From a virus (Duplodnaviria > Heunggongvirae > Uroviricota > Caudoviricetes), in IMG/VR virus record IMGVR_UViG_3300025310_000004, positions 59,759 through 123,758 of that record: DNA of 64,000 bases; one strand, 5' to 3'. Positions 21,865 through 39,955 of this stretch are shown here, in pieces. The translations under genes and the position numbers were made by a program. The first letter of the stretch is position 1; each line of letters starts with the position of its first letter. Below the pieces are notes generated by a model that saw only the letters and a list, made by a program, of their open reading frames with translations, ran no database searches and was not told the DNA's origin.

Positions 21865-21870
21865 GAGCCG

Positions 21871-21912: not shown

Positions 21913-21914
21913 CC

Positions 21915-22145
21915 ATGCTCGAACCTCCCGCATGGCACGCCTTCGCCAACTGCCGGGGTTGTGACCCCGACCTGTTCTTCCCCCAACGAGGTGAATCGAC
22001 CAGGGAGGCCAAGGCGGTGTGTGCTGGGTGCGTGGTGCGCGAGGACTGCCTTGCCGACAGCGTTAGTGAGAAGTTCGGCATCTGGGGTGGCCTGAGCGAG
22101 CGTGAGCGACGCCGCATCCGCAGGCGGATCGCCCTCGCTGGATAA
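21915..22145 (+). CDS. WhiB-like (Wbl) protein
   Basis: CRGC, CAGCVVREDC and FGIWGG. Confidence 0.7.
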   Translation: MLEPPAWHAFANCRGCDPDLFFPQRGESTREAKAVCAGCVVREDCLADSVSEKFGIWGGLSERERRRIRRRIALAG

Positions 22146-22157
22146 CCCCTTGCGCTG

Positions 22158-22180
22158 GTGTCGCACCCGTGTGCTAGGGT
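22158..22180 (+). promoter_or_regulatory. conserved promoter motif GTGTCGCACCCGTGTGCTAGGGT (copy 4)
   Basis: TGcTAGGGT extended -10, with the ATG at 22188 seven nt downstream (leaderless 28-codon ORF). Confidence 0.5.
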
Positions 22181-22307
22181 CGTAGACATGTTCAGGTCCA
22201 GCGACTTCCGCGAACGAGATCAGCGCCGCTCCCGGCGTTGGCGTCGCGATGCGCGACCTGAGGAGCGCAACTAACCCGTACCCCTCATATCCGGGTGCGG
22301 GAATCAT

Positions 22308-22378
22308 CCCCCCGGAGACATAGGGTGCGTCACCTGCCTCTCAAGCAGGAGAATCGGGTTCGAGTCCCGGCGGGGGGA
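22308..22378 (+). tRNA. tRNA-Glu(CTC)
   Basis: Acceptor CCCCCCG/CGGGGGG. Anticodon loop CTCTCAA. Confidence 0.6.
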
Positions 22379-22381
22379 CTA

Positions 22382-22464
22382 GGGAGTGTGGTGGTCGCGT
22401 GAGCACCATCCCGAGTCAGGAACAACACCAGTGGATCGGTGCCTGACGAGTTGGAGCACTCCCT
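22382..22464 (+). ncRNA. atypical tRNA-like element (acceptor and D-stem pair, no canonical T-loop or anticodon loop)
   Basis: GGGAGTG...CACTCCC 7-bp acceptor, with internal helices GTCAGG/CCTGAC and CACC/GGTG. Confidence 0.3.
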
Positions 22465-22473
22465 CACAACCTA

Positions 22474-22549
22474 GGTCCGTTGGTGTAGTGGTCTTGCACG
22501 TTGGCTTGTCACGCCAAAGGAATTGGGGGTTCGATTCCCCTACGGACCG
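22474..22549 (+). tRNA. tRNA-Asp(GTC)
   Basis: Acceptor GGTCCGT/ACGGACC. Anticodon loop TTGTCAC. Confidence 0.7.
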
Positions 22550-22599
22550 CGTAACTCCCTGGTGAGCCTCTCACCGAAGCGCCCAGGGAGAGAGAACAA

Positions 22600-22671
22600 G
22601 CCCCAGGAGACGTATGGCGAGTCGCCGGACTTTCAATCCGGTTGTAGCGGGTTCGATTCCCGTCTGGGGTA
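22600..22671 (+). tRNA. tRNA-Glu(TTC)
   Basis: Anticodon stem CCGGA/TCCGG. Anticodon loop CTTTCAA. Confidence 0.6.
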
Positions 22672-22684
22672 CGCAACAACACAT

Positions 22685-22754
22685 AGGCCAGCCACAGGGT
22701 GGACGGGAGTCTCCAAAACTCCTAGGCAGGGTTCGAGTCCCTGTTGGCCTGCCA
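22685..22754 (+). tRNA. tRNA-Trp(CCA) with shortened D-arm, CCA encoded
   Basis: Anticodon stem GGAGT/ACTCC. Anticodon loop CTCCAAA. Only 14 nt between acceptor and anticodon stem. Confidence 0.5.
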
Positions 22755-22755
22755 A

Positions 22756-22832
22756 GCGCCCGTGGTCTAATGGATTAGGACACTTGACTACGAATCAAGA
22801 GGCTGCAGGTTCGAGTCCTGCCGGGCGCGCCA
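22756..22832 (+). tRNA. tRNA-Arg(ACG), CCA encoded
   Basis: Acceptor GCGCCCG/CGGGCGC. Anticodon loop CTACGAA. Confidence 0.75.
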
Positions 22833-22833
22833 A

Positions 22834-22906
22834 CCCGATGTAACTCAGCGGAGAGAGTGCCGTCTTGCGAAGGCGGAAGTCGCAGGTTCGACTCCTGCCA
22901 TCGGGG
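22834..22906 (+). tRNA. tRNA-Arg(GCG)
   Basis: Acceptor CCCGATG/CATCGGG. Anticodon loop TTGCGAA. Confidence 0.6.
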
Positions 22907-22922
22907 CTTGACAACAGAACTT

Positions 22923-22997
22923 CCCCCGTTGGTGAAACGGAGATCACGGCGTCGTCCGAAGGCGCAGTTCCAGGTTCGATTCCTGGGTGGGGGGCCA
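22923..22997 (+). tRNA. tRNA-Arg(CCG), CCA encoded
   Basis: D-stem GTGA/TCAC. Anticodon loop GTCCGAA. Confidence 0.55.
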
Positions 22998-23075
22998 CCG
23001 GGTAGGGGTGACGGCTTGGAAGCACGCCGGTCTGGGGGACCGGAGGACGCGGGTTCAAATCCCGCCTACCCGACC
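22998..23075 (+). tRNA. tRNA-Pro(GGG), CCA encoded
   Basis: Acceptor CGGGTAG/CTACCCG. Anticodon loop CTGGGGG. Confidence 0.6.
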
Positions 23076-23079
23076 AGAA

Positions 23080-23445
23080 CTACTTGCGACGAAGGTACTT
23101 CCAGACTCGTGAGTCCGAATCAAACAGGTGCTTGAGGAACCATGCGAAGAAGGTCACGACTCCACCAGCGATGATCGCCGTCCAGACCGGAGACTCTCCG
23201 GCGACGTACTGGATGTGCTCGGTGAGAGTGTCGCCGCCGCTGTCGTTGATGAGCGCTGGGACCTCGATGGCGAAGAAGCCGACGACGGCGCTCACCAGCC
23301 AGATCACCCAGGCGATCGTCCAGCCCTTGCGAGGCTGATCCCCCTCGGGAGTGGGCGGCTTCTTGGCAAGGAAGGCCATGCGCCCCACGAAGGCCGCTCC
23401 ACCCAGAAGGGCTACCGTGAGCAGGGTGGTGGCGACGACATCCAT
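23080..23445 (-). CDS. small membrane protein (3-4 TM)
   Basis: Hydrophobic ORF. The long N-terminus would overlap tRNA-Arg, so the shorter MDVV start is preferred. Confidence 0.45.
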   Translation of the reverse strand: MDVVATTLLTVALLGGAAFVGRMAFLAKKPPTPEGDQPRKGWTIAWVIWLVSAVVGFFAIEVPALINDSGGDTLTEHIQYVAGESPVWTAIIAGGVVTFFAWFLKHLFDSDSRVWKYLRRK

Positions 23446-23462
23446 AGCGCAAGCGTACTCTC

Positions 23463-23534
23463 GCCCTCGTGGTGGAAGGGATACCACGGCTCTCTCCTAA
23501 AGAGCAGGTCTGGGTTCGAGTCCCAGCGAGGGCG
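23463..23534 (+). tRNA. tRNA-Arg(CCT)
   Basis: Acceptor GCCCTCG/CGAGGGC. Anticodon loop CTCCTAA. Confidence 0.7.
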
Positions 23535-23540
23535 CTACAA

Positions 23541-23612
23541 GCCTCCGTCGTCCAACGGATAGGACACCCGCCCTCTAAGCGGTGGATGCGGGTTCGACTC
23601 CTGCCGGGGGCG
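23541..23612 (+). tRNA. tRNA-Arg(TCT)-like (C33, weak anticodon stem)
   Basis: Anticodon loop CCTCTAA. The alternative register CTCTAAG would give a CTA anticodon. Confidence 0.4.
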
Positions 23613-23614
23613 CT

Positions 23615-23635
23615 GTCGCACTCAAGTAGTACGAT
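23615..23635 (+). promoter_or_regulatory. promoter motif variant TGTCGCACTC...TAGTACGAT (copy 5)
   Basis: GTG start at 23643, seven nt after TACGAT. Confidence 0.4.
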
Positions 23636-23642
23636 CTGTTGC

Positions 23643-24407
23643 GTGATCGGTGAAGTTGAGTTCGAGGTACCAGACCTTGCCGAGCCAATCAGGGCTTGGA
23701 GATGTTGGCTGCTGGATGGCGACTTCGCTACGCCCATCTTGAAGTCGCCTCAGTCTGGTGTCATCTGGCCGCCAGTGAACGGGTGGCCGAGCGCAGTGAT
23801 TCGTGATCCTGAGCGCAACTACATCACCGCGACGTGTCGGAACGTGACGGGACCTTGTGGGTCATCGCCGTCGGCATCGCGAGATGGTCACCGTGGGGTC
23901 GGTTGTGGCATCTACGCCTACAAGACCGTCGAGGACCTGGCGTGGGATTGGCCTCTTGCTGGCTTGAGCCGCTTCTCCCCCATGAACCTGCTTCCCCCAC
24001 CGTGGGCGCAAGTGGTGTGGGGCCGTGTGCTGTTGTGGGGTCGCGTGTTCGAGCACGATCGTGGCTATCGGGCTGAGTTCGCTCGCATCGACTCGTTGGT
24101 GAGCGTGCCAAACCTTGGCTTCCTGTCGGACGACAAGTTGCTTGATGTCGCCAAGTTCTACGGGGTTCCCTACGAGGTGCTCACCACCGTGTCCAAGGCC
24201 GACCTCGAAGCGGCGGCGTTGGCTCGCGAGAACGAGATGGTGGAGCGGATCAATGCCGCCTACACCAGCCTCGGGGTAGCCCTGGACAACTTGGTTGATG
24301 TGATGACGCGTGGCATGACCCAGATGGTCAAGAGCGTGGCGGATGCCATCGAGCGCTTCAATGCCACCTACGGCAAGGGCGACGACAAGGAGGATGACGA
24401 TGGGTGA
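23643..24407 (+). CDS. hypothetical protein
   Basis: The ORF-track N-terminus overlaps tRNAs, so I trimmed it to the leaderless GTG after the promoter motif. Confidence 0.5.
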   Translation: MIGEVEFEVPDLAEPIRAWRCWLLDGDFATPILKSPQSGVIWPPVNGWPSAVIRDPERNYITATCRNVTGPCGSSPSASRDGHRGVGCGIYAYKTVEDLAWDWPLAGLSRFSPMNLLPPPWAQVVWGRVLLWGRVFEHDRGYRAEFARIDSLVSVPNLGFLSDDKLLDVAKFYGVPYEVLTTVSKADLEAAALARENEMVERINAAYTSLGVALDNLVDVMTRGMTQMVKSVADAIERFNATYGKGDDKEDDDG

Positions 24408-24534
24408 GATCGGAGAGCCGGTGCGTGAGGAGCCATGGCAGGTCCCCGCACCGCCAACGCATGAGCCGGTGAAGGAGCCTTCCCCTGAGCCGGTCGAGCA
24501 GCCCGAGCCTGAGCGCCCCCTGATTCCCGCCTGA
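24394..24534 (+). CDS. small Pro/Glu-rich hypothetical protein
   Basis: Internal ATG overlaps the upstream gene end. Confidence 0.3.
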   Translation: MTMGEIGEPVREEPWQVPAPPTHEPVKEPSPEPVEQPEPERPLIPA

Positions 24535-24538
24535 TCGA

Positions 24539-24560
24539 TGTCGCACCCGGCTGCTATGTT
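24539..24560 (+). promoter_or_regulatory. conserved promoter motif TGTCGCACCC-N6-TGcTATGTT (copy 6)
   Basis: ATG at 24567, six nt after the -10. Confidence 0.5.
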
Positions 24561-24566
24561 GCAGCC

Positions 24567-25256
24567 ATGAACGTGATCCTGCAAGGGGTTGTCGGCTCAA
24601 CCGCCTACGGCCTCGCTACCCCAACTTCCGACATCGACCGCCTCGGCGTGTTCCAAGCCCGCACCTCTGAGTTGCTGGGCCTGCATCCGCCCAAGGAGTC
24701 GCGCGTCTCGACCAACCCGGACGTGACCCACCACGAGTTGGGCAAGTTCGTGAAGTTGTGCCTGGCGAACAACCCCACGGTGATGGAGTTGCTCTGGCTT
24801 GACGAGTACGAGGTGATGACCCCCCTGGGTGAGCGCCTCATCGAGCATCGTCAGTCCTTCATGTCGCAGCGCATCCGCAAGACCTACGGTGGCTATGCCC
24901 GCCAGCAGTTCGAGCGGCTGATGCGTCGTGAGGAGGCCGAGCCGGGCGCTGGCTTCGCTGCCGACCTCAAGAAGCGCACCGAGAAGCACGCCCGCCACTG
25001 CTACCGCCTCATCCTGCAGGGCACCCATGCGCTTCGCACGGGTGAGTTGCGGGTGCGGCTGACTTCTGAGGAAGTTCAGATGTGCCGTGAGGCTGGGCTG
25101 ATGGCAGCCAATGACGTGGTGGAGTTCGGCAAGTCCGTCGAGATCGCCATGGCCGAGTTCGATGCCACCCCCACGGACCTCCCTGAGCATCCCGACGATG
25201 CGGACGCGAACTCGATGCTCGTGGTGGCTCGCACGCTCGATCTCACCGCTCCCTGA
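24567..25256 (+). CDS. Pol-beta-superfamily nucleotidyltransferase
   Basis: VVGSTAYGLATPTSDIDRLGVF GS..D.D motif. Confidence 0.65.
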   Translation: MNVILQGVVGSTAYGLATPTSDIDRLGVFQARTSELLGLHPPKESRVSTNPDVTHHELGKFVKLCLANNPTVMELLWLDEYEVMTPLGERLIEHRQSFMSQRIRKTYGGYARQQFERLMRREEAEPGAGFAADLKKRTEKHARHCYRLILQGTHALRTGELRVRLTSEEVQMCREAGLMAANDVVEFGKSVEIAMAEFDATPTDLPEHPDDADANSMLVVARTLDLTAP

Positions 25257-25273
25257 GAAACTCCTTGCGCGGG

Positions 25274-25295
25274 TGTCGCACCCAGGTGCTAAGGT
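25274..25295 (+). promoter_or_regulatory. conserved promoter motif TGTCGCACCC-N6-TGcTAAGGT (copy 7)
   Basis: Upstream of a 27-codon ORF (ATG ~25340, AGGAGG SD) and the tRNA cluster. Confidence 0.45.
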
Positions 25296-25439
25296 GATCG
25301 AAGAACGCATCGAGCGTTGAGCCACAGGAGGTGACCCAAATGCGAGCGTGTACGAGCATCACAACTGAGATGACCGGCGCTGGCATGGGGATTCCCGTAG
25401 GCTCCGGTCGATTTACCGGCTGACGCTGGTAGCCCAGGT

Positions 25440-25515
25440 CGCGGCTGGGTGAAACGGTTTCCACGCCTGGCTCATAACCAGGAGACATCCGGTTCGACTC
25501 CGGTAGCCGCCACCA
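25440..25515 (+). tRNA. tRNA-Met(CAT), initiator-like (C1·C72 mismatch, A73), CCA encoded
   Basis: Acceptor CGCGGCT/AGCCGCC. Anticodon stem CCTGG/CCAGG. Anticodon loop CTCATAA. Confidence 0.55.
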
Positions 25516-25648
25516 ACCTGCCAGACCGATGATGGGACGCCCACCGAATGACCCGGAGGCGAAACCCGGAGGTCTGACTCCCGACGAGATGGTGCAGGCC
25601 ACTTGTCGGACTCGGGTGAGGGGGCTTCGGCCCCCCACCCGACACCAT

Positions 25649-25722
25649 GGGGCAGCATGTACCAAGGCGGGCGACAGTGCTTTGCAAGCACCGTGTGGTG
25701 GGTTCGATTCCCACCTGCTCCA
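25649..25722 (+). tRNA. tRNA-Ala(TGC) with G3·U70
   Basis: Acceptor GGGGCAG/CTGCTCC. Anticodon loop TTTGCAA. T-arm GTGGG-TTCGATT-CCCAC. Confidence 0.6.
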
Positions 25723-25781
25723 CTGCAGCAGGGTCACCTGCGAGCAAGCGATCATTGACAACTGAATAGGTCTACACAGAT

Positions 25782-25849
25782 GGGGCACGCGCAGGGCGCA
25801 CGCGTCGCTGGCAGCGAAGCATCGCGGGGTTCGAGTCCCCGGTGCTCCA
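25782..25849 (+). pseudogene. tRNA-Ala-like pseudo-tRNA lacking an anticodon loop
   Basis: Acceptor GGGGCAC/GTGCTCC with G3·U70 and a canonical T-arm. Only 36 nt separate them: helix TCGCT/AGCGA with a 3-nt loop. Confidence 0.4.
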
Positions 25850-26029
25850 CTGTGGGGAAGGCCGACGGACAAGGCTTAGGCCCGTGAGAGCGTCAGTACG
25901 AACGTGGGAGGACTTCGGTCCGCTTCACCACGCGGAGGCGTTCAAGCCGGGGTGGGTAGCGAGTGGTCGAGTTCTTCCCCCACCAAGGTCGTGGTACGGC
26001 TCCGGGCAACCGGGCCGCCACGGCCTCGT

Positions 26030-26104
26030 GCGGCATAGGTGTTACGGGTTGCATACCTGCCTTCCAAGCAGAGGGACGGGGTTCGAGTCCCCGATGCCGC
26101 TCCA
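26030..26104 (+). tRNA. tRNA-Gly(TCC), CCA encoded
   Basis: Acceptor GCGGCAT/ATGCCGC. Anticodon loop CTTCCAA. Confidence 0.65.
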
Positions 26105-26217
26105 ACCCCATGGATCGGAGTCGCTACCCGCTCCATGCGTCGCCCTACTGCTGACGGGGGCGTGAAGGTGATACCCCACGAGAGTGTGCACGCTCGACCG
26201 GGGCACGTCGGCTCCAA

Positions 26218-26292
26218 GCGTTCAAGGTGTTCCTGGCTGCACGCCACCTTGCCATGGTGGAGGAGGGGGTTCGAGTCCCCCTGGACGCTCCA
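26218..26292 (+). tRNA. tRNA-Gly(GCC), CCA encoded
   Basis: Anticodon stem CCACC/GGTGG. Anticodon loop TTGCCAT. Confidence 0.7.
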
Positions 26293-26293
26293 A

Positions 26294-26369
26294 GGTTCTC
26301 AGGTGTCCGGTTGGATCGGCACGACGGTCTGAAAAGCCGTAGGGCTGGGTTCGAGTCCCAGGGGAACCA
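26294..26369 (+). tRNA. tRNA-Phe(GAA)
   Basis: Anticodon stem ACGGT/GCCGT. Anticodon loop CTGAAAA. Confidence 0.7.
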
Positions 26370-26374
26370 CACAA

Positions 26375-26414
26375 GGTGTTTCCACTGTTTCCTCTGGCGG
26401 AAACAGGAAACACC
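26375..26414 (+). other. long imperfect hairpin in tRNA spacer (GGTGTTTCC..GGAAACACC)
   Basis: About 16 bp of pairing around the loop tctggc. Confidence 0.4.
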
Positions 26415-26421
26415 GAGGACA

Positions 26422-26499
26422 TGCACGGGTAGCGCCAAGCGGCAAAGGCACCTCCTTCACACGGAGGGGATCGTGGGTTCGAGTCCCACCCCGTGTACC
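26422..26499 (+). tRNA. tRNA-Val(CAC), CCA encoded
   Basis: Anticodon stem CCTCC/GGAGG. Anticodon loop TTCACAC. Confidence 0.7.
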
Positions 26500-26500
26500 A

Positions 26501-26577
26501 AGCGCCGGTGCCCGAGCGGCCTAAGGGGGCGGCCTGCAAAGCCGTACTACGGGGGTTCAAATCCCCCCCGGCGCTCC
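26501..26577 (+). tRNA. tRNA-Cys(GCA), CCA encoded
   Basis: Acceptor GCGCCGG/CCGGCGC. Anticodon loop CTGCAAA. Confidence 0.65.
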
Positions 26578-26682
26578 ATCGCAAGAACTCCCACCCGAGC
26601 ACTCGGGGGTGGATCGAGTAACAAGGACCCATCGTCCCCCGCTTCGGCCGGATCGGTGCTAGGAACCCACTGAGTGCGTCAC

Positions 26683-26762
26683 CGGGGCGTATACCCTCCG
26701 TCTGATAAGCGGTAGAAAGGTTAGTTGGTGACACGGAGGTTCAAATCCTCCCGCCCCGACCA
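26683..26762 (+). tRNA. atypical tRNA (possible Ile-GAT loop CTGATAA; D-region too short, long extra region), CCA encoded
   Basis: Acceptor CGGGGCG/CGCCCCG and a canonical T-arm. The internal region does not fold canonically. Confidence 0.3.
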
Positions 26763-26763
26763 T

Positions 26764-26925
26764 GGTGAGAGACAGGAAGGTACGAGGGTTCGATTCCCTC
26801 ACGCTCCACTCGTGGGGCGTCCGGTGGACTCCGGTGAAGTCGGTTCGATTCCGACGCCCCGTAGGGGTGATGGTCACGAATAGGGTCGCTCCCGCCGAGG
26901 TGGTTCGACTCCACCACTCTCACCA
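26764..26925 (+). ncRNA. three tandem tRNA-like T-arm/acceptor minihelices enclosed by an 8-bp terminal helix, ending CCA
   Basis: T-arms at ~26784, 26851 and 26905, spaced 54-67 nt apart. 5' GGTGAGAG pairs with 3' CTCTCACC. Confidence 0.4.
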
Positions 26926-26931
26926 GATCAT

Positions 26932-27008
26932 GCACGGGTGGCCAAGTCTGGTAAGGCCCCTCCATGACACGGAGGAAACCGCGGGTTCAAATCCCGCCTC
27001 GTGCACCA
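26932..27008 (+). tRNA. tRNA-Val(GAC), CCA encoded
   Basis: Anticodon loop ATGACAC. T-arm GCGGG-TTCAAAT-CCCGC. Confidence 0.65.
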
Positions 27009-27009
27009 C

Positions 27010-27083
27010 TGCGCCGAAGTCGATTGGCGAGACAGCGGCCTCATAAGCCGTGGTAGAGGGTTCGATTCCCTCCGGCGCGACCA
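27010..27083 (+). tRNA. tRNA-Met/Ile2(CAT), CCA encoded
   Basis: Anticodon stem GCGGC/GCCGT. Anticodon loop CTCATAA. Confidence 0.6.
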
Positions 27084-27084
27084 C

Positions 27085-27159
27085 GCACCCAAGGTCTAGA
27101 CGGCGAGACGGCGGCATGGTAAGCCGCAGAGCGGGGTTCAAGTCCCCGTGGGTGCTCCA
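27085..27159 (+). tRNA. tRNA-Thr(GGT), CCA encoded
   Basis: Acceptor GCACCCA/TGGGTGC. Anticodon loop ATGGTAA. Confidence 0.7.
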
Positions 27160-27160
27160 C

Positions 27161-27235
27161 GCACTGGAAGCATGAATGGTGATGCGGCTGTCTCGTAAAC
27201 AGCAGAACCGGGTTCGATTCCCGGCCGGTGCTCCA
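27161..27235 (+). tRNA. tRNA-Thr(CGT), CCA encoded
   Basis: D-stem GCAT/ATGC. Anticodon loop CTCGTAA. Confidence 0.75.
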
Positions 27236-27236
27236 T

Positions 27237-27308
27237 GCCGTTGGCCCTGGTGGGCGCGCCGCCGTTGTACCGCGGTTACCTCGGGTTCGATCCCTGGCGA
27301 CGGCTCCA
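27237..27308 (+). tRNA. atypical tRNA: reduced D-arm and apparent 9-nt anticodon loop (CGTTGTACC), CCA encoded
   Basis: Acceptor GCCGTTG/CGACGGC. T-loop TTCGATC. Confidence 0.35.
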
Positions 27309-27360
27309 AGCACTAGACATCGTTAGACCTGTTCAGTTGTCTGCCCTCAAGGAGACAGAT

Positions 27361-27995
27361 CATGCGAGTTGAGATTCGCCCCGGTGAAGGGGGTGAGGAC
27401 GCCCAGCGCTTCGCCAAGGAGTGCCTTTGACGCGTTCTGCAAGGCGGCCCGCCGACGTGGGCTTGAGCCAGCAGTCAGCGAGTCCGCTCGCACCATGATC
27501 TTGGAGATCGCCGACATCTCCTTCCTTGAGCCCTTCGTCGGCACCCACCGCGTGCAGCGCATCCCCAAGGGGGAGCAGCGCCGTCACACCTCGACGGCCA
27601 CGGTTGCGATCGTCGGCCAGGTAGACAATGACGACTTCATCCCCGATGAGGAAATCGAGGAGCGGTTCGATCGCGGTGGCGGCAAGGGTGGCCAGCACCA
27701 GAACACCACCGACTCGGCGGTGACCCTCACCCACACCCCCACCGGGATCACGGTCCACATCGAGGGACGCAAGCAGTGGGGCAACCGCCAGGAAGCACGT
27801 CGGGTGCTATCCGAACGGGTAGCAGCCCATCGCCGAGCAGAGGCGTTGCGGATGTGCAACGACCAGCGGCGCGCCCAGATCAACCCGGAGCGCTCCGCCA
27901 AGTCGTTCACCCACAACACTCAGCGCAACGAGGTGGTGGACCACGACTCGGGTCGGTCGTGGCGGCTCACCGAGTTCCATAAGGGCAAGTTCTGA
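27361..27995 (+). CDS. prfH-like: class-I release-factor homologue lacking domain 1 (RF-H/PrfH-like); full length requires +1 frameshift at CUU UGA C
   Basis: Frame A gives MRVEIRPGEGGEDAQRFAKECL then TGA. The +1 frame continues DAFCKAARRRG...HRVQRIP...GGQHQNTTDSAVTLTHTPTGI. AAGGAG sits 3 nt upstream of CTT. Confidence 0.65.
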
Positions 27996-28017
27996 TGTCA
28001 CAGCCATCCGCTATGGT

Positions 28018-28827
28018 GTGCCGATGGCCAGGATGCTCGTACTCGGTGACACGCACGGCGACGTGAAGTTCTTGGAGCGCGCCTGCCGGATGGCCGTGAA
28101 GTCCGACTGCGACCGCATCGTCCAGGTCGGCGATTGGGGCTTCCTGTGGCCAGGAGCGAAGAACGATCGCCTCAAGGCGATCACCAACGTGTTGGCGCAG
28201 TTCGACCTCCACATGTTCTTCCTCGACGGCAACCATGAGTGGTATGGCCGCTTGGAGGAGATGGGGGCGACCCCCGATGCTCCCCACATGGTTGCGCTGT
28301 CGGATCGGGTCGCCTACTTGCCTCGTGGCTTCACTTGGGCTTGGGGCGGCGTGACCTTCATGTCGCTTGGCGGTGCCTTCTCCATCGACCAGGACCAGCG
28401 GACCAAGTTCATCGACTATTGGCCCCAGGAGACGATCCGTTACGCGGACGCTGACCGTGCCATTGCCGCTGGGCATGTGGACGTGATGTTCACCCACGAC
28501 GTTCCCGAGGGCGTTGTCAAGTTGGAGGCGATGCTGCATCGCGCCAGTGATCACTACCGGAGGTCCTACGGGGCCAAGTGGAACTACAAGTTGGACCCCG
28601 GCAGCCGGGCCAACCGCAAGACGTTGCGCGCCGTCGTTGACGAGGTGCAGCCCTTCTTGCTGATCCACGGCCACTACCACTGGCGCTACGACGACACCTT
28701 GGTGGGCGAGGACTACACCACCGAGGTGCGCGGCCTTGACTGCAACGGCTCGGGCGAGAGGGCCTGGGGAGTCGTGGATACGGCCGATGTCTTGAGATGG
28801 AGACTTGTCGTTGACGACGACGAATGA
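28018..28827 (+). CDS. calcineurin-like metallophosphoesterase
   Basis: GDTHGD, GDWG, DGNHE and GHYH motifs. Confidence 0.75.
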   Translation: MPMARMLVLGDTHGDVKFLERACRMAVKSDCDRIVQVGDWGFLWPGAKNDRLKAITNVLAQFDLHMFFLDGNHEWYGRLEEMGATPDAPHMVALSDRVAYLPRGFTWAWGGVTFMSLGGAFSIDQDQRTKFIDYWPQETIRYADADRAIAAGHVDVMFTHDVPEGVVKLEAMLHRASDHYRRSYGAKWNYKLDPGSRANRKTLRAVVDEVQPFLLIHGHYHWRYDDTLVGEDYTTEVRGLDCNGSGERAWGVVDTADVLRWRLVVDDDE

Positions 28828-28987
28828 GGACATCCAGCAGCACCCGCTCCACCGGGTGGTGGTGGGGGCGTTGAAGGACACCATCAACATGCACGGCCCC
28901 ATCACCCCCGAGTGGATCGGGTCTGCCGCCAAGCGGATCACGGCTGCCGTGGTGGCCGAGCAGAAGAAGTCTGCGGAAACCTCTTGA
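28805..28987 (+). CDS. small hypothetical protein
   Basis: 60-aa ORF with a TTG start overlapping the upstream gene. Confidence 0.3.
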   Translation: MSLTTTNEDIQQHPLHRVVVGALKDTINMHGPITPEWIGSAAKRITAAVVAEQKKSAETS

Positions 28988-28991
28988 TCGA

Positions 28992-29013
28992 GTGTCGCAC
29001 CCGTGTGCTAGGG
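28992..29013 (+). promoter_or_regulatory. conserved promoter motif TGTCGCACCCGTGTGCTAGGGT (copy 8)
   Basis: Identical to copy 4. ATG at 29021 of a 33-codon ORF, then the Leu tRNA cluster. Confidence 0.5.
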
Positions 29014-29158
29014 TCGTAGACATGTACCGATTGCTCCCCCTCCTACGGCCACTCAAGGCCAAGCCTGGGCATCAGCGCCCGCGCCATGCTGCGCGACCGC
29101 TGAATCCCCAGCAACAGGGGTAGAGCACCTTCTCTCCCCCTGTGGCCTGAGAAGGTCT

Positions 29159-29242
29159 TGCGGGGGTGGCGTAACTGGCAGCCGCGCCGGGTTTAGGTCC
29201 CGGTGGCCGAGAGGTCGTGAGGGTTCGAGTCCCTCCTCCCGC
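29159..29242 (+). tRNA. tRNA-Leu(TAG)
   Basis: Anticodon stem CCGGG/CCCGG. Anticodon loop TTTAGGT. 15-nt variable arm. Confidence 0.65.
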
Positions 29243-29246
29243 ACCG

Positions 29247-29333
29247 AGTGCCCGTGGCGGAACTGGTAGACGCGTTGTCCTCAGAAGGCAATGTCCGCAA
29301 GGGCGTGAGGGTTCGACTCCCTCCGGGCACACC
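29247..29333 (+). tRNA. tRNA-Leu(CAG), CCA encoded
   Basis: Acceptor GTGCCCG/CGGGCAC. Anticodon loop CTCAGAA. Confidence 0.7.
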
Positions 29334-29334
29334 A

Positions 29335-29420
29335 AGTCAGCATGGTGGAATGGTAGACACGCCGTCTTGAGGGGGCGGTGGCCGCAAGGTCGTGAGGGTT
29401 CGACTCCCTCTGCTGACACC
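29335..29420 (+). tRNA. tRNA-Leu(GAG), CCA encoded
   Basis: Acceptor GTCAGCA/TGCTGAC. Anticodon loop TTGAGGG. Confidence 0.7.
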
Positions 29421-29445
29421 AAACGCAAGAAACGCAACAAGATCA

Positions 29446-29527
29446 AGCCCGAGTGGCGGAACTGGCAGACGCGCTCGTCTCAAGAACGAGTGACCTAGGT
29501 CGTGTGGGTTCGACTCCCACCTCGGGC
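29446..29527 (+). tRNA. tRNA-Leu(CAA)
   Basis: Anticodon stem CTCGT/ACGAG. Anticodon loop CTCAAGA. Confidence 0.7.
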
Positions 29528-29560
29528 ACGCAAGGCTCTTTGACAACAGAAGATCACCGA

Positions 29561-29585
29561 TACAACGGGACGGGGTGACGGCTTG
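29561..29585 (+). repeat. duplicated 5' fragment of tRNA-Pro(CGG) (CAACGGGACGGGGTGACGGCTTGG)
   Basis: 24/25 identity with 30021-30045 at the start of the intact tRNA-Pro downstream of the HNH gene. Confidence 0.6.
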
Positions 29586-29600
29586 GATTAGACGGCAACG

Positions 29601-29606
29601 CTATAA
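29601..29606 (+). promoter_or_regulatory. perfect TATAAT -10 box 8 nt upstream of HNH ATG
   Basis: Seen directly. The surrounding sequence has lower GC. Confidence 0.4.
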
Positions 29607-29614
29607 TCTAATCC

Positions 29615-30037
29615 ATGACGATCACCCAGAAGTGCAAGCGCTGCGGAAAGCGGCGTGAACACGGACTCCGACGCAATGGCAGTGCTCAGGCGTACTGCCG
29701 TCAGTGTCAGAGGGAATACAGCAAGAGTCACTACGAAACCAACAAGGGTTCGTACAACGGCAGGAGGTTGAAGCACCAACGGCAGCGACGCCAAGACGGA
29801 TACAAGATCACGAACTCGGCCAAGGATCGCCCTTGCGTCGATTGCGGGGTCAAGTACCCGACCTACGTCATGCAGTTCGATCATCGGGACCCGACGACCA
29901 AGAACTTCACGATTGCCACCCATGTTCGCAATGGTGGCTCCTTGAAGGCGCTGATCGCCGAGATCGAGAAGTGTGACGTGGTTTGTGCGAATTGTCATGC
30001 CGAAAGGACGCATCAACAACGCAACGGGACGGGGTGA
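29615..30037 (+). CDS. HNH homing endonuclease
   Basis: MQFDHRDP and CANCHAERTH HNH motif. The gene has lower GC than its flanks. Confidence 0.8.
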   Translation: MTITQKCKRCGKRREHGLRRNGSAQAYCRQCQREYSKSHYETNKGSYNGRRLKHQRQRRQDGYKITNSAKDRPCVDCGVKYPTYVMQFDHRDPTTKNFTIATHVRNGGSLKALIAEIEKCDVVCANCHAERTHQQRNGTG

Positions 30038-30102
30038 CGGTTTGGTTGCACGCCGCGTTCGGGACGCGGAGGTCGCGGGTTCAAATCCCGCCGTCCCGAC
30101 CA
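30025..30102 (+). tRNA. tRNA-Pro(CGG), CCA encoded
   Basis: Acceptor CGGGACG/CGTCCCG. Anticodon loop TTCGGGA. The 5' end overlaps the HNH stop. Confidence 0.65.
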
Positions 30103-30103
30103 T

Positions 30104-30176
30104 CGGAAGGTGGTGACAAGCGCACAGCGGCCGTTGGGGCCGCAGGACCGGGGGTAGCGTCCCGGCTTTCCGACCA
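30104..30176 (+). pseudogene. cloverleaf tRNA-like with non-canonical loops (T-loop GGTAGCGT, anticodon loop CGTTGGG), CCA encoded
   Basis: Acceptor CGGAAGG/CTTTCCG. All four helices are present. Confidence 0.35.
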
Positions 30177-30177
30177 A

Positions 30178-30249
30178 CGGGTAGGTGCCGGATGGCAAGG
30201 CACTCGGTTTGGGGCCGAGACTAAGGAGGTTCGATTCCTCTCTACCCGA
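30178..30249 (+). tRNA. tRNA-Pro(TGG)
   Basis: Anticodon stem CTCGG/CCGAG. Anticodon loop TTTGGGG. Confidence 0.65.
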
Positions 30250-30254
30250 CTTGA

Positions 30255-30323
30255 TCGATGGTGGCCGCAATTGGTAGCGGTAGCCCGACGGGGTTTGTGC
30301 GGGTTCGAGTCCCGTCCATCGAT
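30255..30323 (+). pseudogene. tRNA-like with canonical acceptor/T-arm but collapsed anticodon arm
   Basis: Acceptor TCGATGG/CCATCGA and T-arm GCGGG-TTCGAGT-CCCGT. Internal CCCGACGGG. Confidence 0.3.
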
Positions 30324-30330
30324 CAACCAT

Positions 30331-30406
30331 TCCGGGGAAGGTTGATGGCATCCTGCCCGCACTCTGAATGCGGACCACGTTGGTTCGATTCCAACCCCCG
30401 GAGCCA
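30331..30406 (+). tRNA. tRNA-Gln(CTG), CCA encoded
   Basis: Anticodon stem CCGCA/TGCGG. Anticodon loop CTCTGAA. Confidence 0.7.
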
Positions 30407-30407
30407 T

Positions 30408-30483
30408 GGTGACCGGAGCCGGATGGAGAGGCGCTTGGTTGTGACCCAAGCAGCAGGGGGTTCGATTCCCCTCGGTCACCCCA
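30408..30483 (+). tRNA. tRNA-His(GTG) with encoded G-1 and C73, CCA encoded
   Basis: G-1 + GTGACCG/CGGTCAC. Anticodon loop TTGTGAC. Confidence 0.7.
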
Positions 30484-30487
30484 TCGA

Positions 30488-30562
30488 TCGGGAGTGGTGT
30501 AACGGCAGCACGCGAGGCTTTGAACCTCGTAGGTGAGGGTTCGAGTCCTTCCTCCCGAGCCA
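30488..30562 (+). tRNA. tRNA-Gln(TTG), CCA encoded
   Basis: Acceptor TCGGGAG/CTCCCGA. Anticodon loop CTTTGAA. Confidence 0.7.
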
Positions 30563-30591
30563 ACGTCACAGCGACATGATACTATAGGAGA

Positions 30592-30744
30592 ATGCTAGGT
30601 AACCGAAAGAACCGAGGTCGCCACGGCGATAGGTACTGCCCCTACGGGTGCTGCCGCAGCCTGGTGACCGGCAAGAAGTCCAAGACCCGCCGCATCTTGC
30701 GGACCCGCGACAAGCGGGCCTGGGTCAAGGACCAGCGCAACTGA
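30592..30744 (+). CDS. small basic Cys-containing protein (50 aa)
   Basis: AGGAG SD. MLGNRKNRGRHGDRYCPYGCCRS... Below the ORF-track cutoff. Confidence 0.3.
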   Translation: MLGNRKNRGRHGDRYCPYGCCRSLVTGKKSKTRRILRTRDKRAWVKDQRN

Positions 30745-30748
30745 TCGT

Positions 30749-30824
30749 TCCGGGGTGGCCGATAGGCAAGGCGGCTCCCTGTTAAGGAGTTTCAATGTGG
30801 GTTCGAGTCCCACCCCCGGAGCCA
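30749..30824 (+). tRNA. tRNA-Asn(GTT), CCA encoded
   Basis: Anticodon loop CTGTTAA. T-arm GTGGG-TTCGAGT-CCCAC. Confidence 0.7.
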
Positions 30825-30825
30825 A

Positions 30826-30900
30826 CCCGAGATGGCGTAGCAGGCAACGCGGCTGGCCGTTAACCAGCAGTGGGGGGTTCAAGTCCTTCTCTCGGGGCCA
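30826..30900 (+). tRNA. tRNA with GTT anticodon and C33 (second Asn-like), CCA encoded
   Basis: Anticodon stem GCTGG/CCAGC. Anticodon loop CCGTTAA. Confidence 0.45.
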
Positions 30901-30901
30901 T

Positions 30902-30979
30902 CCAGGTGTAGCAAACGTTGGCATTGCACCCGCCTCTTAAGCGGACTAAACGTGGGTTCGATTCCCGCCGCCTGGACCA
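30902..30979 (+). tRNA. tRNA-Lys(CTT), CCA encoded
   Basis: Anticodon loop CTCTTAA. T-arm GTGGG-TTCGATT-CCCGC. Confidence 0.6.
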
Positions 30980-30980
30980 A

Positions 30981-31055
30981 CCGCCTCAAGCATTGATGGT
31001 GATGCACCCGACTCTTAATCGGGAGAGCAGGTTTCGAGTACCTGGGGGCGGACCA
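30981..31055 (+). tRNA. tRNA-Lys(CTT) second copy, CCA encoded
   Basis: D-stem GCAT/ATGC. Anticodon stem CCCGA/TCGGG. Anticodon loop CTCTTAA. Confidence 0.6.
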
Positions 31056-31086
31056 TGAGAACGAAACCAACGCCAACTCCAATCTC

Positions 31087-31158
31087 GGGGGTATGGCGTA
31101 GCGGTAGCGCACCGGACTTTTAATCCGAGAGGCCAGGGTTCGATCCCCTGTGCCCCCA
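31087..31158 (+). tRNA. tRNA-Lys(TTT)
   Basis: Acceptor GGGGGTA/TGCCCCC. Anticodon loop CTTTTAA. Confidence 0.6.
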
Positions 31159-31179
31159 CTGCACCCAGGAGGTGACCCA

Positions 31180-31323
31180 TGGCGAAGTATCTTCGCAAGG
31201 CGCAGGAGCGCCTGGCCAAGCGCATCAAGGCATACGAGGAGGACACCAAGGGTGCCTCTGGCAAGTCCTCCGGCCGCAAGCGGCCCGGCAGCCTCAAGAC
31301 GCGCCGCTAGATAAGGGTGTCAT
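31180..31323 (+). CDS. small basic protein (47 aa, MAKYLRKAQERLAKRIKAYEED...)
   Basis: AGGAGG SD. Below the ORF-track cutoff. Confidence 0.35.
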
Positions 31324-31339
31324 CAAGACGCGACACCAG

Positions 31340-31361
31340 TGTCGCACCCAGGCGCTAGGAT
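31340..31361 (+). promoter_or_regulatory. conserved promoter motif TGTCGCACCC-N6-TAGGAT (copy 9)
   Basis: ATG at 31369 seven nt downstream. Preceded by a GGTGTC/GACACC hairpin. Confidence 0.5.
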
Positions 31362-31368
31362 CGTCGCC

Positions 31369-31626
31369 ATGTACGGGTTCATGCTGTTCCTGGCCACGGT
31401 CGCCCTCGTAGCCTTCATTGTGGTCGCTTGCCTCGGCATCCGTTCGCAGTGGCGGGCGATGAGGGCATCCAGCGTCACGATCAAGCATGGCGAGGTTGAT
31501 CACAACCATCGAGAGATGGCTCGCCTGCTTGACGCCATGCTGGTCCAAGACGAGATGGTCCCGTACCTCAACGCTCACCACCGTGACCGCGCGAAGCAGT
31601 TGGTGGATGAGTTCCACTCCCCCTGA
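31369..31626 (+). CDS. small membrane protein (1 TM)
   Basis: MYGFMLFLATVALVAFIVVACLGI. Confidence 0.5.
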   Translation: MYGFMLFLATVALVAFIVVACLGIRSQWRAMRASSVTIKHGEVDHNHREMARLLDAMLVQDEMVPYLNAHHRDRAKQLVDEFHSP

Positions 31627-31636
31627 AAGGACCATC

Positions 31637-32542
31637 ATGAAGTACCGCTTGGCTGCGGTGTTCGCAGCACTTGTCGTCGTGCTCGCAGGTTGCACCTACG
31701 ACTCGACACAGAGCGACGAGGTGTCGTGCGCCTACGGTGGCGGCCCCTTCGAGTCGCCGCAGTTGAAGGAGGAACTCGACCCTGGATCGGGCCGCTCCTT
31801 CATCGGGGTGTTCGATGACACCTACCACTACCCGACTTCCCAGCGCACCTACGACATCAGCCCCGTCGAGGGCGAGGGTGACGAGCCGTCTCGCTCCGAC
31901 CTGATCATGGCACCGTCGTCTGACGACATCCGCATGGAGGTCGGCATGATCGTGCGGTTCAAGTTGAACACCAACATCGTGTGCGAGTTCCACGAGCAGG
32001 TCGGCCGCAAGTACGACGCCTGGACCGACGAGGGTTGGCGCAACATGCTGCGCGAGACGTTCCGTCGTCCCCTTGAGCGCTCGATTCAGGAGACGGTGCG
32101 TCGCAACGAGGGCCGCGCTCTCTACTCCAACGCTGATCTTCTGATCGAGGTCGAGCGTCAGGTCGGCACCGGACTCAAGGACAACATCAACCGCACCCTT
32201 GGTGCCGACTACTTCTGTGGCCCCGGCTTCCAGCATGGCGAGGAAGCCTGCCCCGAGTTCGAGGTGACGCTCACCCATCTGCAGCCCTCGGACCCATCGG
32301 CCCTGGTGGCCTTCGAGGCCGTCGAGATCGAGAAGGCCAACACCGCCGCGGCAGAGCAGAAGGTGCTCACCGCCGAGCAGGAGGCCCTCGCGATTCAGGA
32401 GTTGCAGGACGTGATGGCAAACGGCGGCAGCGCTGTGGCCCTGCTCGAAGCCGTGCGGTCCGGCAAGGTCACCTTCTGGGTGATCGATGGTGAGGGCCTG
32501 TCCGTGCAGGCACCTCCTCCCACGACGACCCCTGGTGGCTGA
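31637..32542 (+). CDS. lipoprotein with SPFH/band-7-like C-terminal region
   Basis: Lipobox LAGC after the signal peptide. AEQKVLTAEQEALAIQELQ region. Confidence 0.5.
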   Translation: MKYRLAAVFAALVVVLAGCTYDSTQSDEVSCAYGGGPFESPQLKEELDPGSGRSFIGVFDDTYHYPTSQRTYDISPVEGEGDEPSRSDLIMAPSSDDIRMEVGMIVRFKLNTNIVCEFHEQVGRKYDAWTDEGWRNMLRETFRRPLERSIQETVRRNEGRALYSNADLLIEVERQVGTGLKDNINRTLGADYFCGPGFQHGEEACPEFEVTLTHLQPSDPSALVAFEAVEIEKANTAAAEQKVLTAEQEALAIQELQDVMANGGSAVALLEAVRSGKVTFWVIDGEGLSVQAPPPTTTPGG

Positions 32543-33036
32543 TGAGCGACCTGGCGTCTGAGCGCACCTGCTGGGACTGCTTCTTCATGGAGCAGGTCGA
32601 TCTTGCGGCCAAGCAGTCCACCTGCAGGACGCGCCACGTTGGTGGCGTGCTGGTGCGAGGCAACCGCATCGTTGCTCAGGGCTTCAACGGCAACCTCCCT
32701 GGTCACCCTCACTGTGACCAGGGAGGTTGCGACCGTTGTGCCGACCGAGCGCGAGGCATCGGCGAGTCCGGTGAGGCCCTGGGTGCATGTCTGTGCGTCC
32801 ATGCCGAGCAGAACATCGTCTCCTACTGCGCCCGCAACGGCATCTCGATGGCCGACACCACGATCTACCTGCCGTGCAACCCGTGCTTGGACTGCATGAA
32901 GTTGATCGTCTCGGCCGGGGTGAGCGAGATCGTGTTCCGCGACCGCTACCCATCGACGTTTATCTTGGTGCGTCGCGTCGCCGAGGTGTCCGGGGTGACC
33001 ATGCGGTTCGCCTCGTGCAACTGCACCACCGAGTAG
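32542..33036 (+). CDS. dCMP/cytidine deaminase-family zinc enzyme
   Basis: HAEQN and PCNPCLDC zinc motifs. Confidence 0.8.
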   Translation: MSDLASERTCWDCFFMEQVDLAAKQSTCRTRHVGGVLVRGNRIVAQGFNGNLPGHPHCDQGGCDRCADRARGIGESGEALGACLCVHAEQNIVSYCARNGISMADTTIYLPCNPCLDCMKLIVSAGVSEIVFRDRYPSTFILVRRVAEVSGVTMRFASCNCTTE

Positions 33037-33099
33037 GTCGTTCGGATCATCTTCCGAGAAACCCCTTGCAGGTGTCTCACTCGTTTGCTAGAGTTTGCT

Positions 33100-33790
33100 C
33101 TAGTTCGCAAGACCCCAGACCGCAAGGACGGGGCACTACAACTGAATAGATCGCAGCAGCAGCGTTGCGTAGGAACGGGTTACTTCTCCTGTTAAGAGAG
33201 TGGAGAGGGTTCGACTCCCTCCGGGGCCGCCAACATGGTCCCGTGGTGTAACGGCCAGCACACTAACCGTCACCTGATCCGCCGAGTTCTCGCTGCTGCT
33301 CAATCGCACGACGACGTTGCGAAGCGTTGGGATACTTCCGGTACCACTTTCACCGGGCCTACCTCGTGGTCGAGGACCTGCACTCCGTTGCAGGAAGTGG
33401 GGTTCGATTCCCCGGCTCTCCTCCTGATGCGCCAAGTTCTCGTCGTCGCACCACCTCGGTGGCGATGCGTAGCGTTGGGATACTTCGGTAACACAGGTTC
33501 GACTCCTGTCGGCCAGAGCAATCTGGTTTGGCCCCACTTCGGAGGGGCATCGAGTCCTCGGACTCAACAGCACTCCTGATGCGCCAAGTTCACGCCACCA
33601 AGATGTGGGACGTTGCGAAGGTCCGGGTTACTTCTGGCTTCCAATCAGACCCAACACCTGTACCGACGAGTTCTCGTCCCCTCAACCGCTGGTGGCGGTG
33701 GCGATGCGAAGCCATGGGTTACTTCATCTTGGAACGAACACCTGCGGCGACCAAGTTCACGCCACTGCACCCAGCCCAACCGAAAGGAGC
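33100..33790 (+). ncRNA. tandem array of Y-RNA-like repeats with tRNA-like T-arm modules upstream of Ro60 gene
   Basis: Four to five ~150-bp units share GTTGCG(A/T)AG..GGGTTACTTC and CCTGATGCGCCAAGTTC. T-arms at ~33204, 33397 and 33494. Confidence 0.5.
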
Positions 33791-33796
33791 ACCACC

Positions 33797-39945: not shown

Positions 39946-39955
39946 GGGGGTCCAG

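Follow-up and report, generated by a model that had tools for sequence, protein, structure and literature searches.

We analysed a 64,000-nucleotide (nt) stretch of DNA from a Caudoviricetes virus (IMG/VR record IMGVR_UViG_3300025310_000004, positions 59,759 to 123,758; hereafter called the window), and found in it a release-factor-like gene (27362-27995, plus strand) that is very probably expressed through a programmed +1 frameshift of the type known from prfB, the gene for release factor 2 (RF2). The product of this event would be an RF1-derived protein of 210 amino acids (aa) that lacks domain 1. The gene is laid out in two reading frames, this architecture is conserved among its relatives with purifying selection in both frames, and the encoded protein resembles RF1 in homology and in fold. 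Comparison of the sequences strongly supports the frameshift, and we read the cassette as the prfB switch re-invented in phages on a different release-factor paralogue.

The strand of the window was read directly, and the frames of 27361-27995 were translated from its letters. The original prediction had placed in this span a two-frame release-factor gene carrying a prfB-type cassette. The cassette could be read directly in the sequence and is kept in 12 independently assembled relatives, and the gene ends at 27995 as proposed, although its ATG start codon lies at 27362-27364 and not at 27361. A Shine-Dalgarno (SD) sequence is found 7 nt ahead of this ATG, and purine-rich sites precede the ATG at the equivalent place in those relatives whose upstream DNA could be inspected. 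The first open reading frame (ORF0, frame 0) contains 22 sense codons (MRVEIRPGEGGEDAQRFAKECL) and encodes the first strand and the start of the helix of release-factor domain 2. At its end lie a second AAGGAG, a spacer codon, the slippery sequence CTT_T, and an in-frame TGA followed by C, which is a weak context for termination (Table 1). The internal AAGGAG, an SD-like stimulator, ends 6 nt ahead of the UGA, the same spacing as in prfB (PMC10732093, PMC12421855). At the shift the spacer codon would occupy the E site, and the tRNA-Leu in the P site would re-pair from CUU to UUU. From GAC GCG TTC at 27429, the +1 frame (ORF1) reads DAFCKAARRRG...HRVQRIPKGEQRRHTS...GGQ...KGKF over 188 codons and a stop, supplying the remainder of domain 2 along with domains 3 and 4.

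The composite cassette string, AGGAGNNNCTTTGAC, occurs once in the window and was not recovered in any of 100 shuffles. The Pfam PCRF profile matched the fused 210-aa product above its gathering score over residues 3-81 (43.9 bits), and so spans the junction, while the downstream ORF alone was matched just over residues 58-79 (24.8 bits). CTT makes up 11.8% of the Leu codons in the genes of this phage, and the TGA-C context is seen at one of the 26 natural TGA stops among the window genes. Folding of 27400-27500 gave no significant extra RNA structure (z = -0.55), and no ATG, GTG or TTG occurs in the +1 frame for ~60 nt after the internal SD, until the Met of ...RTMILE. The lack of both a nearby start codon and RNA structure indicates that the known prfB elements account for the whole of the visible signal. 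Readthrough of the stop codon was rejected, as frame 0 meets another stop 11 codons on and the intervening residues show no homology, and transcriptional slippage is unlikely with a T-run of just three bases.

When 5.8 billion proteins were searched, ~22 close relatives (52-88% identity) were retrieved. All of them lack the true N-terminus and start with unrelated residues followed by x-F-D-A, which is the +1-frame reading of NNC TTT GAC. In each of these entries (P0001-P0022) gene calling had shortened or mis-started the gene, the called start being either a +1-frame codon or a Met further downstream. Since every close relative is mis-called, public protein sets do not hold a correct full-length sequence for the frameshifted clade. 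The DNA of 12 distinct relatives (L001, L002, L083, L084, L085, L088, L089, L090, L091, L093, L099 and L100) was taken from independent JGI, ENA, Logan and IMG/VR assemblies, and the counts of 13 given below include the gene of the window. These relatives are 43-88% identical in amino acid sequence, and the GC content of the frameshifted loci ranges from 37.5 to 64.5%. ORF0 is exactly 22 codons long in all 13 loci, following the pattern M-x-x-E-[IV]-[RK]-PGEGGxDA..F....L, and CTT_T is invariant (13/13, entropy 0). The stop in the cassette is TGA in 12 loci, TAA in one (L001) and TAG in none, and the base after it is C in 12 and G in one (L093). The hexamer 3 nt upstream of CTT reads [A/C]AGGAG in nine loci, CGGGGG in one, CAGGAC in one and [A/C]GAGAA in two; the SD-like element was graded as strong in 10 of the 13, weaker (AGGAC) in one and weak (GAGAA) in two. 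The 3-nt distance to CTT is the same in all relatives, and 11 of the 13 loci were counted as having an SD-like element there. The spacer codon varies in sequence (TGC, TGT, TTG, TTA, CTC, TTT or TGG), its length being constant at 3 nt. The locus with the lowest GC content (L091, 37.5%; gene at 1663-2302) carries the cassette AAGGAG TTA CTT TGA C and a 22-codon ORF0, indicating that the switch is not restricted to high-GC phages.

Outside the cassette, pairwise nucleotide identity among these loci has a median of 63% and a minimum of 44%, and the flanking synonymous sites are free to vary. Upstream of the site, variation is highest at the third codon positions of frame 0 (entropy 0.46/0.33/1.24 for the three positions), and downstream it is highest at the third positions of the +1 frame (0.85/0.80/1.54). 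This switch in the frame of third-position variation indicates that both halves are translated and selected, each in its own frame. The fused product aligns without gaps with 51 single-frame homologues, which read GAR CTN NNN GAY at the equivalent DNA and carry no cassette. In a neighbour-joining tree, the 13 frameshifted genes form one clade nested in a short release-factor-like family, and the comparison suggests a single origin of the cassette followed by long retention.

A gene split between two frames may also be the product of a one-base assembly or sequencing error in what is really a single-frame gene, and an extra T in a T-run is a common type of error. We regard the chance of this as negligible, since 12 other loci, which differ in sample, assembler and level of divergence, are split at the same codon, one relative has TAA along with a different SD-like sequence, and the single-frame homologues do not read as the cassette sequence minus one T. 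Disrupted frames are often pseudogenes, and NCBI-style annotation pipelines would flag this gene as one. However, there is very little room for a decaying release-factor-like gene when purifying selection acts on both halves down to 43% identity, no further disruptions are seen, neither the GGQ motif nor the decoding residues vary, and the gene keeps its start site and ribosome-binding site. It is also quite improbable that ORF0 is a leader peptide and that the internal AAGGAG serves as the ribosome-binding site of the downstream ORF, which would then yield a shorter protein with no frameshift. The internal element is indeed a perfect SD, and gene callers had chosen TTG, GTG or ATG starts or the downstream ATG (MILE...), but the called starts differ among relatives and the +1 frame, as described above, offers no start codon between the SD and that Met. 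Further, the stretch from the shift site to this Met is conserved as protein too, ORF0 encodes the conserved release-factor motif EIRPGEGGxDA collinearly with the single-frame homologues, and re-initiation leaves the invariant CTT_T and the C after the stop unexplained.

The identity of the product was assessed with NCBIfam profiles, and every score fell below the cut-off of its family. RF1 models gave 120.4 and 127 bits (cut-offs 423.25 for TIGR00019 and 400 for NF001859), the RF2 model TIGR00020 gave 87.5 bits (370), the PrfH model TIGR03072 gave 55.2 bits (166.65) and the ArfB model NF006718 gave 30.4 bits (100). The RF1 equivalog profiles aligned over profile positions ~108-334 only, the PrfH profile covered residues 85-178 only, which is the GGQ domain, and the ArfB match was confined to the GGQ motif. 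With solved structures as sequence targets, the scores were 112 bits for RF1, 65 bits for RF2, and 35.6 and 30.9 bits for the PrfH chains. An AlphaFold model of the fused 210-aa product, built with 54 sequences, had a pLDDT of 90.7. Foldseek matched this predicted model to ribosome-bound RF1 of T. thermophilus with a TMq of 0.86, and the best PrfH chain ranked 50 with a TMq of 0.66. RF1 (prfA) domains 2-4 are thus the best match by profile, by sequence and by fold. The model contains the fold of domains 2, 3 and 4, with the invariant GGQ at residues 109-111. The N-terminus of the product is equivalent to RF1 residue ~109, which means that domain 1 is absent (210 aa compared to ~355 in RF1). 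This bears out two further points of the original prediction, namely the loss of domain 1 and the location of the cassette, which falls where domain 2 begins and at another point of the fold than the site in prfB.

Decoding residues were compared across the 13 frameshifted genes, 51 single-frame short genes (the whole short family thus numbering 64) and seven full-length RF1 proteins. In RF1 numbering, Q181, P184, T194 and the GGQ are invariant in the frameshifted genes and in the whole family, H193 is H in all 13 frameshifted genes and in 62 members of the family (Q in the other 2), and the switch-loop ERSxK is retained as in RF1. Differences from RF1 were seen at several positions. The tripeptide aligned to the PxT of RF1 is PKG (P68-K69-G70); it had been rightly predicted to be non-canonical, but was read as IPK, off by one residue. 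The Thr of PxT (T186) is replaced by G in 11, R in one and N in one of the frameshifted genes and is mostly not Thr in the whole family. E119 is D in 13/13 frameshifted genes and in 63/64 of the family, and both T115 (to E) and I192 (to R) are changed in 13/13 and 64/64. The loop from P184 to H193 has 6 residues of variable sequence in the frameshifted genes, two fewer than the 8 of RF1, and ranges from 5 to 8 in the whole family. Features used by RF1 for stop-codon readout, that is, PxT and the Glu at the tip of helix alpha-5, are therefore absent. We read the product, from its sequence and predicted fold, as an RF1-derived, catalytically competent A-site factor with a non-canonical stop-codon readout, and the altered decoding loop appears compatible with relaxed specificity or with codon-independent rescue. 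Two known identities were considered and rejected, namely RF2 (prfB), where the profile score is below cut-off, the tripeptide is PKG and not SPF, and domain 1 is absent, and an ArfB/ICT1-type rescue factor, where the score is again below cut-off and domains 2 and 4 are present in the product. As judged by these comparisons, the product is outside RF1, RF2, PrfH and ArfB as those families are defined.

The exclusion from PrfH departs from the original prediction, which had assigned the gene to this family (RF-H); membership would make it a factor rescuing ribosomes with damaged 16S rRNA alongside an RNA ligase. PrfH, which with RtcB2 rescues ribosomes cleaved in the decoding centre, is likewise a ~200-aa release-factor paralogue without domain 1 and with GGQ, has a non-canonical decoding element, lies near RNA-repair genes, and acts independently of the A-site mRNA (PMC9304027). 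RlaP, an Rnl1-type ligase and a polynucleotide kinase-phosphatase (PNKP) are encoded in the window, and in one relative an RtcB gene lies 3 kb downstream. Nevertheless, we consider membership very unlikely. The profile, structure-sequence and fold comparisons given above all place the product far nearer to RF1, pointing to a separate lineage; domain 2, clearly RF1-like here, is strongly divergent in PrfH, where the N-terminal domain departs strongly from RF1/RF2 and the tripeptide is a conserved SXY (PMC1586002, PMC9304027). PrfH is found in an operon with RtcB, whereas the window has no RtcB gene and its repair genes are not adjacent to the release-factor-like gene, and no frameshift is reported for prfH. 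An ordinary stop-specific RF1-type factor that boosts termination at UAG/UAA, with the frameshift only tuning its level, is a more serious contender that we still find doubtful. RF1 gives the best matches in sequence and in fold, the invariant Q181, H193 and T194 are residues used by RF1 to recognise the third base and to stack on the codon, and TAG ends 11 of the 37 window genes (~30%). On the other hand, the loss of the PxT Thr in 13/13 genes, the E119D change and the shorter, variable loop argue against the canonical readout of A at position 2, and a factor of the RF1 type could not feed back on a UGA sensor.

We then determined the distribution of the gene. No match was obtained when 27300-28900 and 20000-40000 were compared by megablast with 50,697 phage genomes, and tblastn of the fused protein against phage genomes gave only matches below 40% identity, none of them in an actinophage. 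These matches were full-length RF1/RF2 genes of jumbo phages, unannotated phage-labelled fragments and one bacterial chromosome record, and the gene was not found by tblastn in any cultured phage of the INPHARED collection. Viral contigs scanned with a single protein yielded no match; an alignment-based query found six contigs, and a cassette-specific DNA pattern matched only the same six in IMG/VR. This pattern had no matches in 185,579 bacterial and archaeal species, represented by one genome each. A metagenome scan with generic patterns returned mostly bacterial RF1, and its sole true relative (L003) ends before the shift site. A pattern for the N-terminal motif of the family, applied to the 185,579 species genomes, identified 15 genuine single-frame genes, all from Actinomycetota (Actinomadura, Spirillospora, Virgisporangium, Micromonosporaceae, Acidimicrobiaceae, Ferrimicrobium and two unclassified metagenome-assembled genomes of this phylum), and the one that was inspected (L094) is a stand-alone chromosomal gene. 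Such short 'peptide chain release factor-like protein' genes of Actinomycetota belong to the same family as the phage gene: they start with xIEIRPGEGGxDA, lack domain 1, share P[KR][NG]...RRHTS and GGQ, and show 38-50% identity, and the frameshifted clade nests within them. Unlike the phage genes, all are single-frame and have no SD-CTT-TGA cassette at the homologous spot. No characterised member of this group was found in the literature searched, which also held no description of the gene family or its frameshift, although absence there is no proof of novelty.

Table 1. Position of the frameshifted gene, its signals and neighbouring features in the window.
Feature	Coordinates	Strand	Remarks
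Shine-Dalgarno AAGGAG of ORF0	27349..27354	+	sequence read
ORF0	27362..27427	+	
Internal SD-like AAGGAG	27416..27421	+	
Spacer codon TGC	27422..27424	+	
Slippery sequence CTT_T	27425..27428	+	CTT 27425-27427
In-frame stop and following C	27428..27431	+	TGA 27428-27430, C 27431
ORF1	27429..27995	+	stop TGA 27993-27995
Metallophosphoesterase gene	28018..28827	+	Pfam Metallophos 30.6 bits; phrog_1649 146.9 bits
Upstream tRNA block, ending Val(gac)-Met-Thr(ggt)-Thr(cgt)	25440..27235	+	ARAGORN; 127 nt before the release-factor-like start
Downstream tRNA block, starting with four Leu tRNAs	29160..31159	+	ARAGORN; includes tRNA-Leu(GAG) 29336-29421
Rnl1-type RNA ligase	19846-20940	+	
T4-type PNKP	20968-21864	+	44% identical to T4-like pseT
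RlaP nucleotidyltransferase	24567-25256		
Ro60 orthologue, TROVE + vWA	33605-35404	+	Pfam TROVE 55 bits; phrog_850 182 bits
Portal gene	8418-11546		
Major head protein	36633-38594		860 phage records matched
Major tail protein	44608-45567		
Candidate tape-measure protein by size	53667-60377		2,236-aa ORF

The release-factor-like gene lies inside a large phage tRNA array in nine of the nine loci with usable flanking DNA, and ARAGORN detected 37 tRNA genes in the window. The order of the upstream tRNAs is common to L002, L083, L084, L085, L088, L089 and L099, and a Leu block with Leu(GAG) is found 3' of the gene in L002, L083, L084, L085, L088, L089 and L090. The tRNA-Leu(GAG) of the phage array can decode the CUU shift codon. 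Phe, Ile and Trp tRNAs are missing from the ARAGORN results for the window, although relatives have Phe and Ile tRNAs at matching places. Sub-threshold tRNA-like elements were seen in gaps of the array (25782-25848, 26302-26369, 26684-26811 and 26861-26923, plus strand), the best of them, at 26302-26369, falling just short of the gathering score (28.9 bits, with 29 required), and a partial match to the tmRNA model was also found in these gaps. Between the upstream tRNA block and the gene a consensus scan found no promoter or terminator on the plus strand, a result of little weight in an actinophage as the consensus was of the E. coli type. A metallophosphoesterase gene directly follows, as predicted, and homologues of it with 45-50% identity lie 2-4 kb from the release-factor-like gene in L089 and L002; it is a neighbour, and any functional link between the two is putative.

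Genes for RNA repair are found within ~8 kb of the release-factor-like gene in the window, encoding the ligase, PNKP, RlaP and Ro60 orthologue listed in Table 1 as well as the adjacent metallophosphoesterase. An ORF at 18971-19849 (plus strand) matches the first ~65 residues of the Rnl1-type ligase family and is fused to a LAGLIDADG endonuclease, indicating that the ligase gene may have been interrupted or partly duplicated by a homing element. Upstream of the Ro60 orthologue by ~190 nt, a weak tRNA-like match (33355-33418, plus strand) was obtained with the Rfam tRNA-Sec model (26.3 bits, E 0.055), a candidate for the tRNA-like module of a partner Y RNA; none of the Rfam Y RNA families reached threshold. 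Relatives carry additional genes close by, including a tmRNA in L088 (3915-4297), RtcB and ClpP in L089 (9448-10611), and a Thg1-like enzyme and an intein-containing RecA near the frameshifted gene in L002 (1932-2702 and 6648-8498). RtcB was seen only in L089 among the relatives examined, with other genes lying in the 3 kb between. Searches of the 64-kb window by tblastn with RtcB and ClpP of L089 and Thg1 and RecA of L002 gave no match, and ARAGORN found no tmRNA in it.

Structural genes of a tailed phage are also present in the window. An ORF at 11543-15232 (plus strand; 1,229 aa) has an N-terminal 2H/2'-5' RNA-ligase-like domain (Pfam 32.9 bits; PHROG RNA ligase), and the rest of it matches portal, protease and virion structural PHROGs, an unusual fusion for a structural gene. 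All genera listed among the matches to the major head protein are actinobacterial, the best being Arthrobacter phage Mimi at 36.5%. Together with the GC content of the window (62.7%), these matches indicate that the host is almost certainly an actinobacterium.

The phage cassette and that of prfB (AGGGGG-N3-CUU-UGA-C) share the order and spacing of their elements, the slippery CUU_U, the C after the stop and a stop readable by RF2, which is UGA, rarely UAA and never UAG; the frameshift stops of prfB are 98.6% TGA, 1.4% TAA and 0% TAG (PMC12421855). Both sites are near the start of the gene, at codon 23 here and codon 26 in E. coli, and in both the regulated gene is a class-I release-factor homologue. 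The phage-encoded gene is, however, closer to RF1, its consensus SD-like element is AAGGAG in place of AGGGGG, and its site is at the start of domain 2 while that of prfB is inside domain 1. This different position in the fold indicates that the phage cassette arose independently. The prfB motif, present in 64% of 12,753 genomes, is absent from all 2,658 genomes surveyed of Actinomycetota (Prince et al. 2025, PMC12421855), the phylum of the host of the window. No programmed frameshifting is known for prfA (PMC12421855), and the 2006 paper on RFH and its reviewers describe the RF1 family as being without a frameshift (PMC1586002). The sole viral release factor with recoding mentioned in a 2016 review by Atkins is the eRF1 of giant viruses, which requires readthrough and frameshifting (PMC5009743). 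This too is a class-I release factor of a virus that needs recoding, but it is of the eukaryotic type, is found in viruses of amoebae, uses other signals, and belongs to another protein family with no evolutionary relation to the phage gene.

Based on these similarities, ribosomes would start at the ATG at 27362 and translate 22 codons, bringing CUU into the P site and UGA-C into the A site, where either host RF2 terminates or the ribosome shifts. If RF2 acts slowly, the internal AAGGAG would pair with the anti-SD of 16S rRNA and promote slippage, the tRNA-Leu would slip from CUU to UUU, and reading would resume in the +1 frame. All known cassettes use a stop that RF2 can read (UGA/UAA), and the output of the factor should therefore rise when RF2-dependent termination slows; the exclusive use of such stops, mirroring prfB, argues that RF2 activity is the input. 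That the shift occurs, that it depends on RF2 and what the product does biochemically are inferred from the signals and homologies described here. Should the factor itself act at UGA, a feedback loop would result, and otherwise the cassette would serve as a sensor of host termination capacity. The factor would belong to a translation-maintenance module of the phage, made up of the large tRNA array with RNA-repair genes nearby. The context of tRNA array, tmRNA and RNA repair speaks for a factor that helps to sustain translation during attack or shut-off, and a role in a setting of RNA repair or ribosome rescue is plausible from the neighbouring genes.

Several observations weigh against expression by a prfB-type frameshift as set out here. 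The prfB cassette frameshifts at just 6.6% in Mycobacterium smegmatis, compared to 52.7% in B. subtilis (PMC12421855), so that little product may be made in an actinobacterial host as long as RF2 is not limiting. The stimulators are also not universal, as the strong SD-like element is replaced by [A/C]GAGAA in two loci (L099 and L100) and the base following the stop is G in L093. In addition, the factor is nearer to RF1 than to RF2, which makes true autoregulation at UGA uncertain. A more extended proposal, which we put forward as tentative and somewhat short of an even chance, is that a lineage of large, tRNA-rich phages independently evolved the prfB switch on a different release-factor paralogue as a sensor of RF2-dependent termination in the host, deploying a domain-1-less factor on stalled ribosomes. 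Frameshifting would then rise when termination or translation is compromised, for instance by defences that target tRNAs or ribosomes, or by shut-off. The factor, with relaxed or non-canonical specificity, would free peptides from stalled ribosomes, and would otherwise be kept scarce because it would be toxic.

Autoregulatory recoding has its textbook example in the prfB frameshift, which, in the literature searched, is confined to RF2 genes. The phage gene would represent a second, independently evolved instance, on a different release-factor paralogue, at another position in the fold and in viruses. All relatives examined retain its signal, although the phylum of the host of the window has lost it from its own prfB. 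Gene callers shorten all these frameshifted genes, so that close relatives stand in the protein collection without their true N-terminus. Their products are part of an uncharacterised family of release-factor-like proteins without domain 1, which occurs in Actinomycetota and their phages; its members may act in ribosome rescue or as termination factors of relaxed specificity, with a tie to phage tRNA arrays. Whether the ribosome itself or a high level of RF2 causes the low frameshifting in Actinomycetota was left open by Prince et al. (2025, PMC12421855), and the phage cassette offers a natural system in which to test these two explanations. If the cassette does act as a sensor, actinobacterial ribosomes would be competent for SD-stimulated +1 frameshifting, and the loss of the motif from actinobacterial prfB would reflect the demand for RF2 and not an incapacity of the ribosome.

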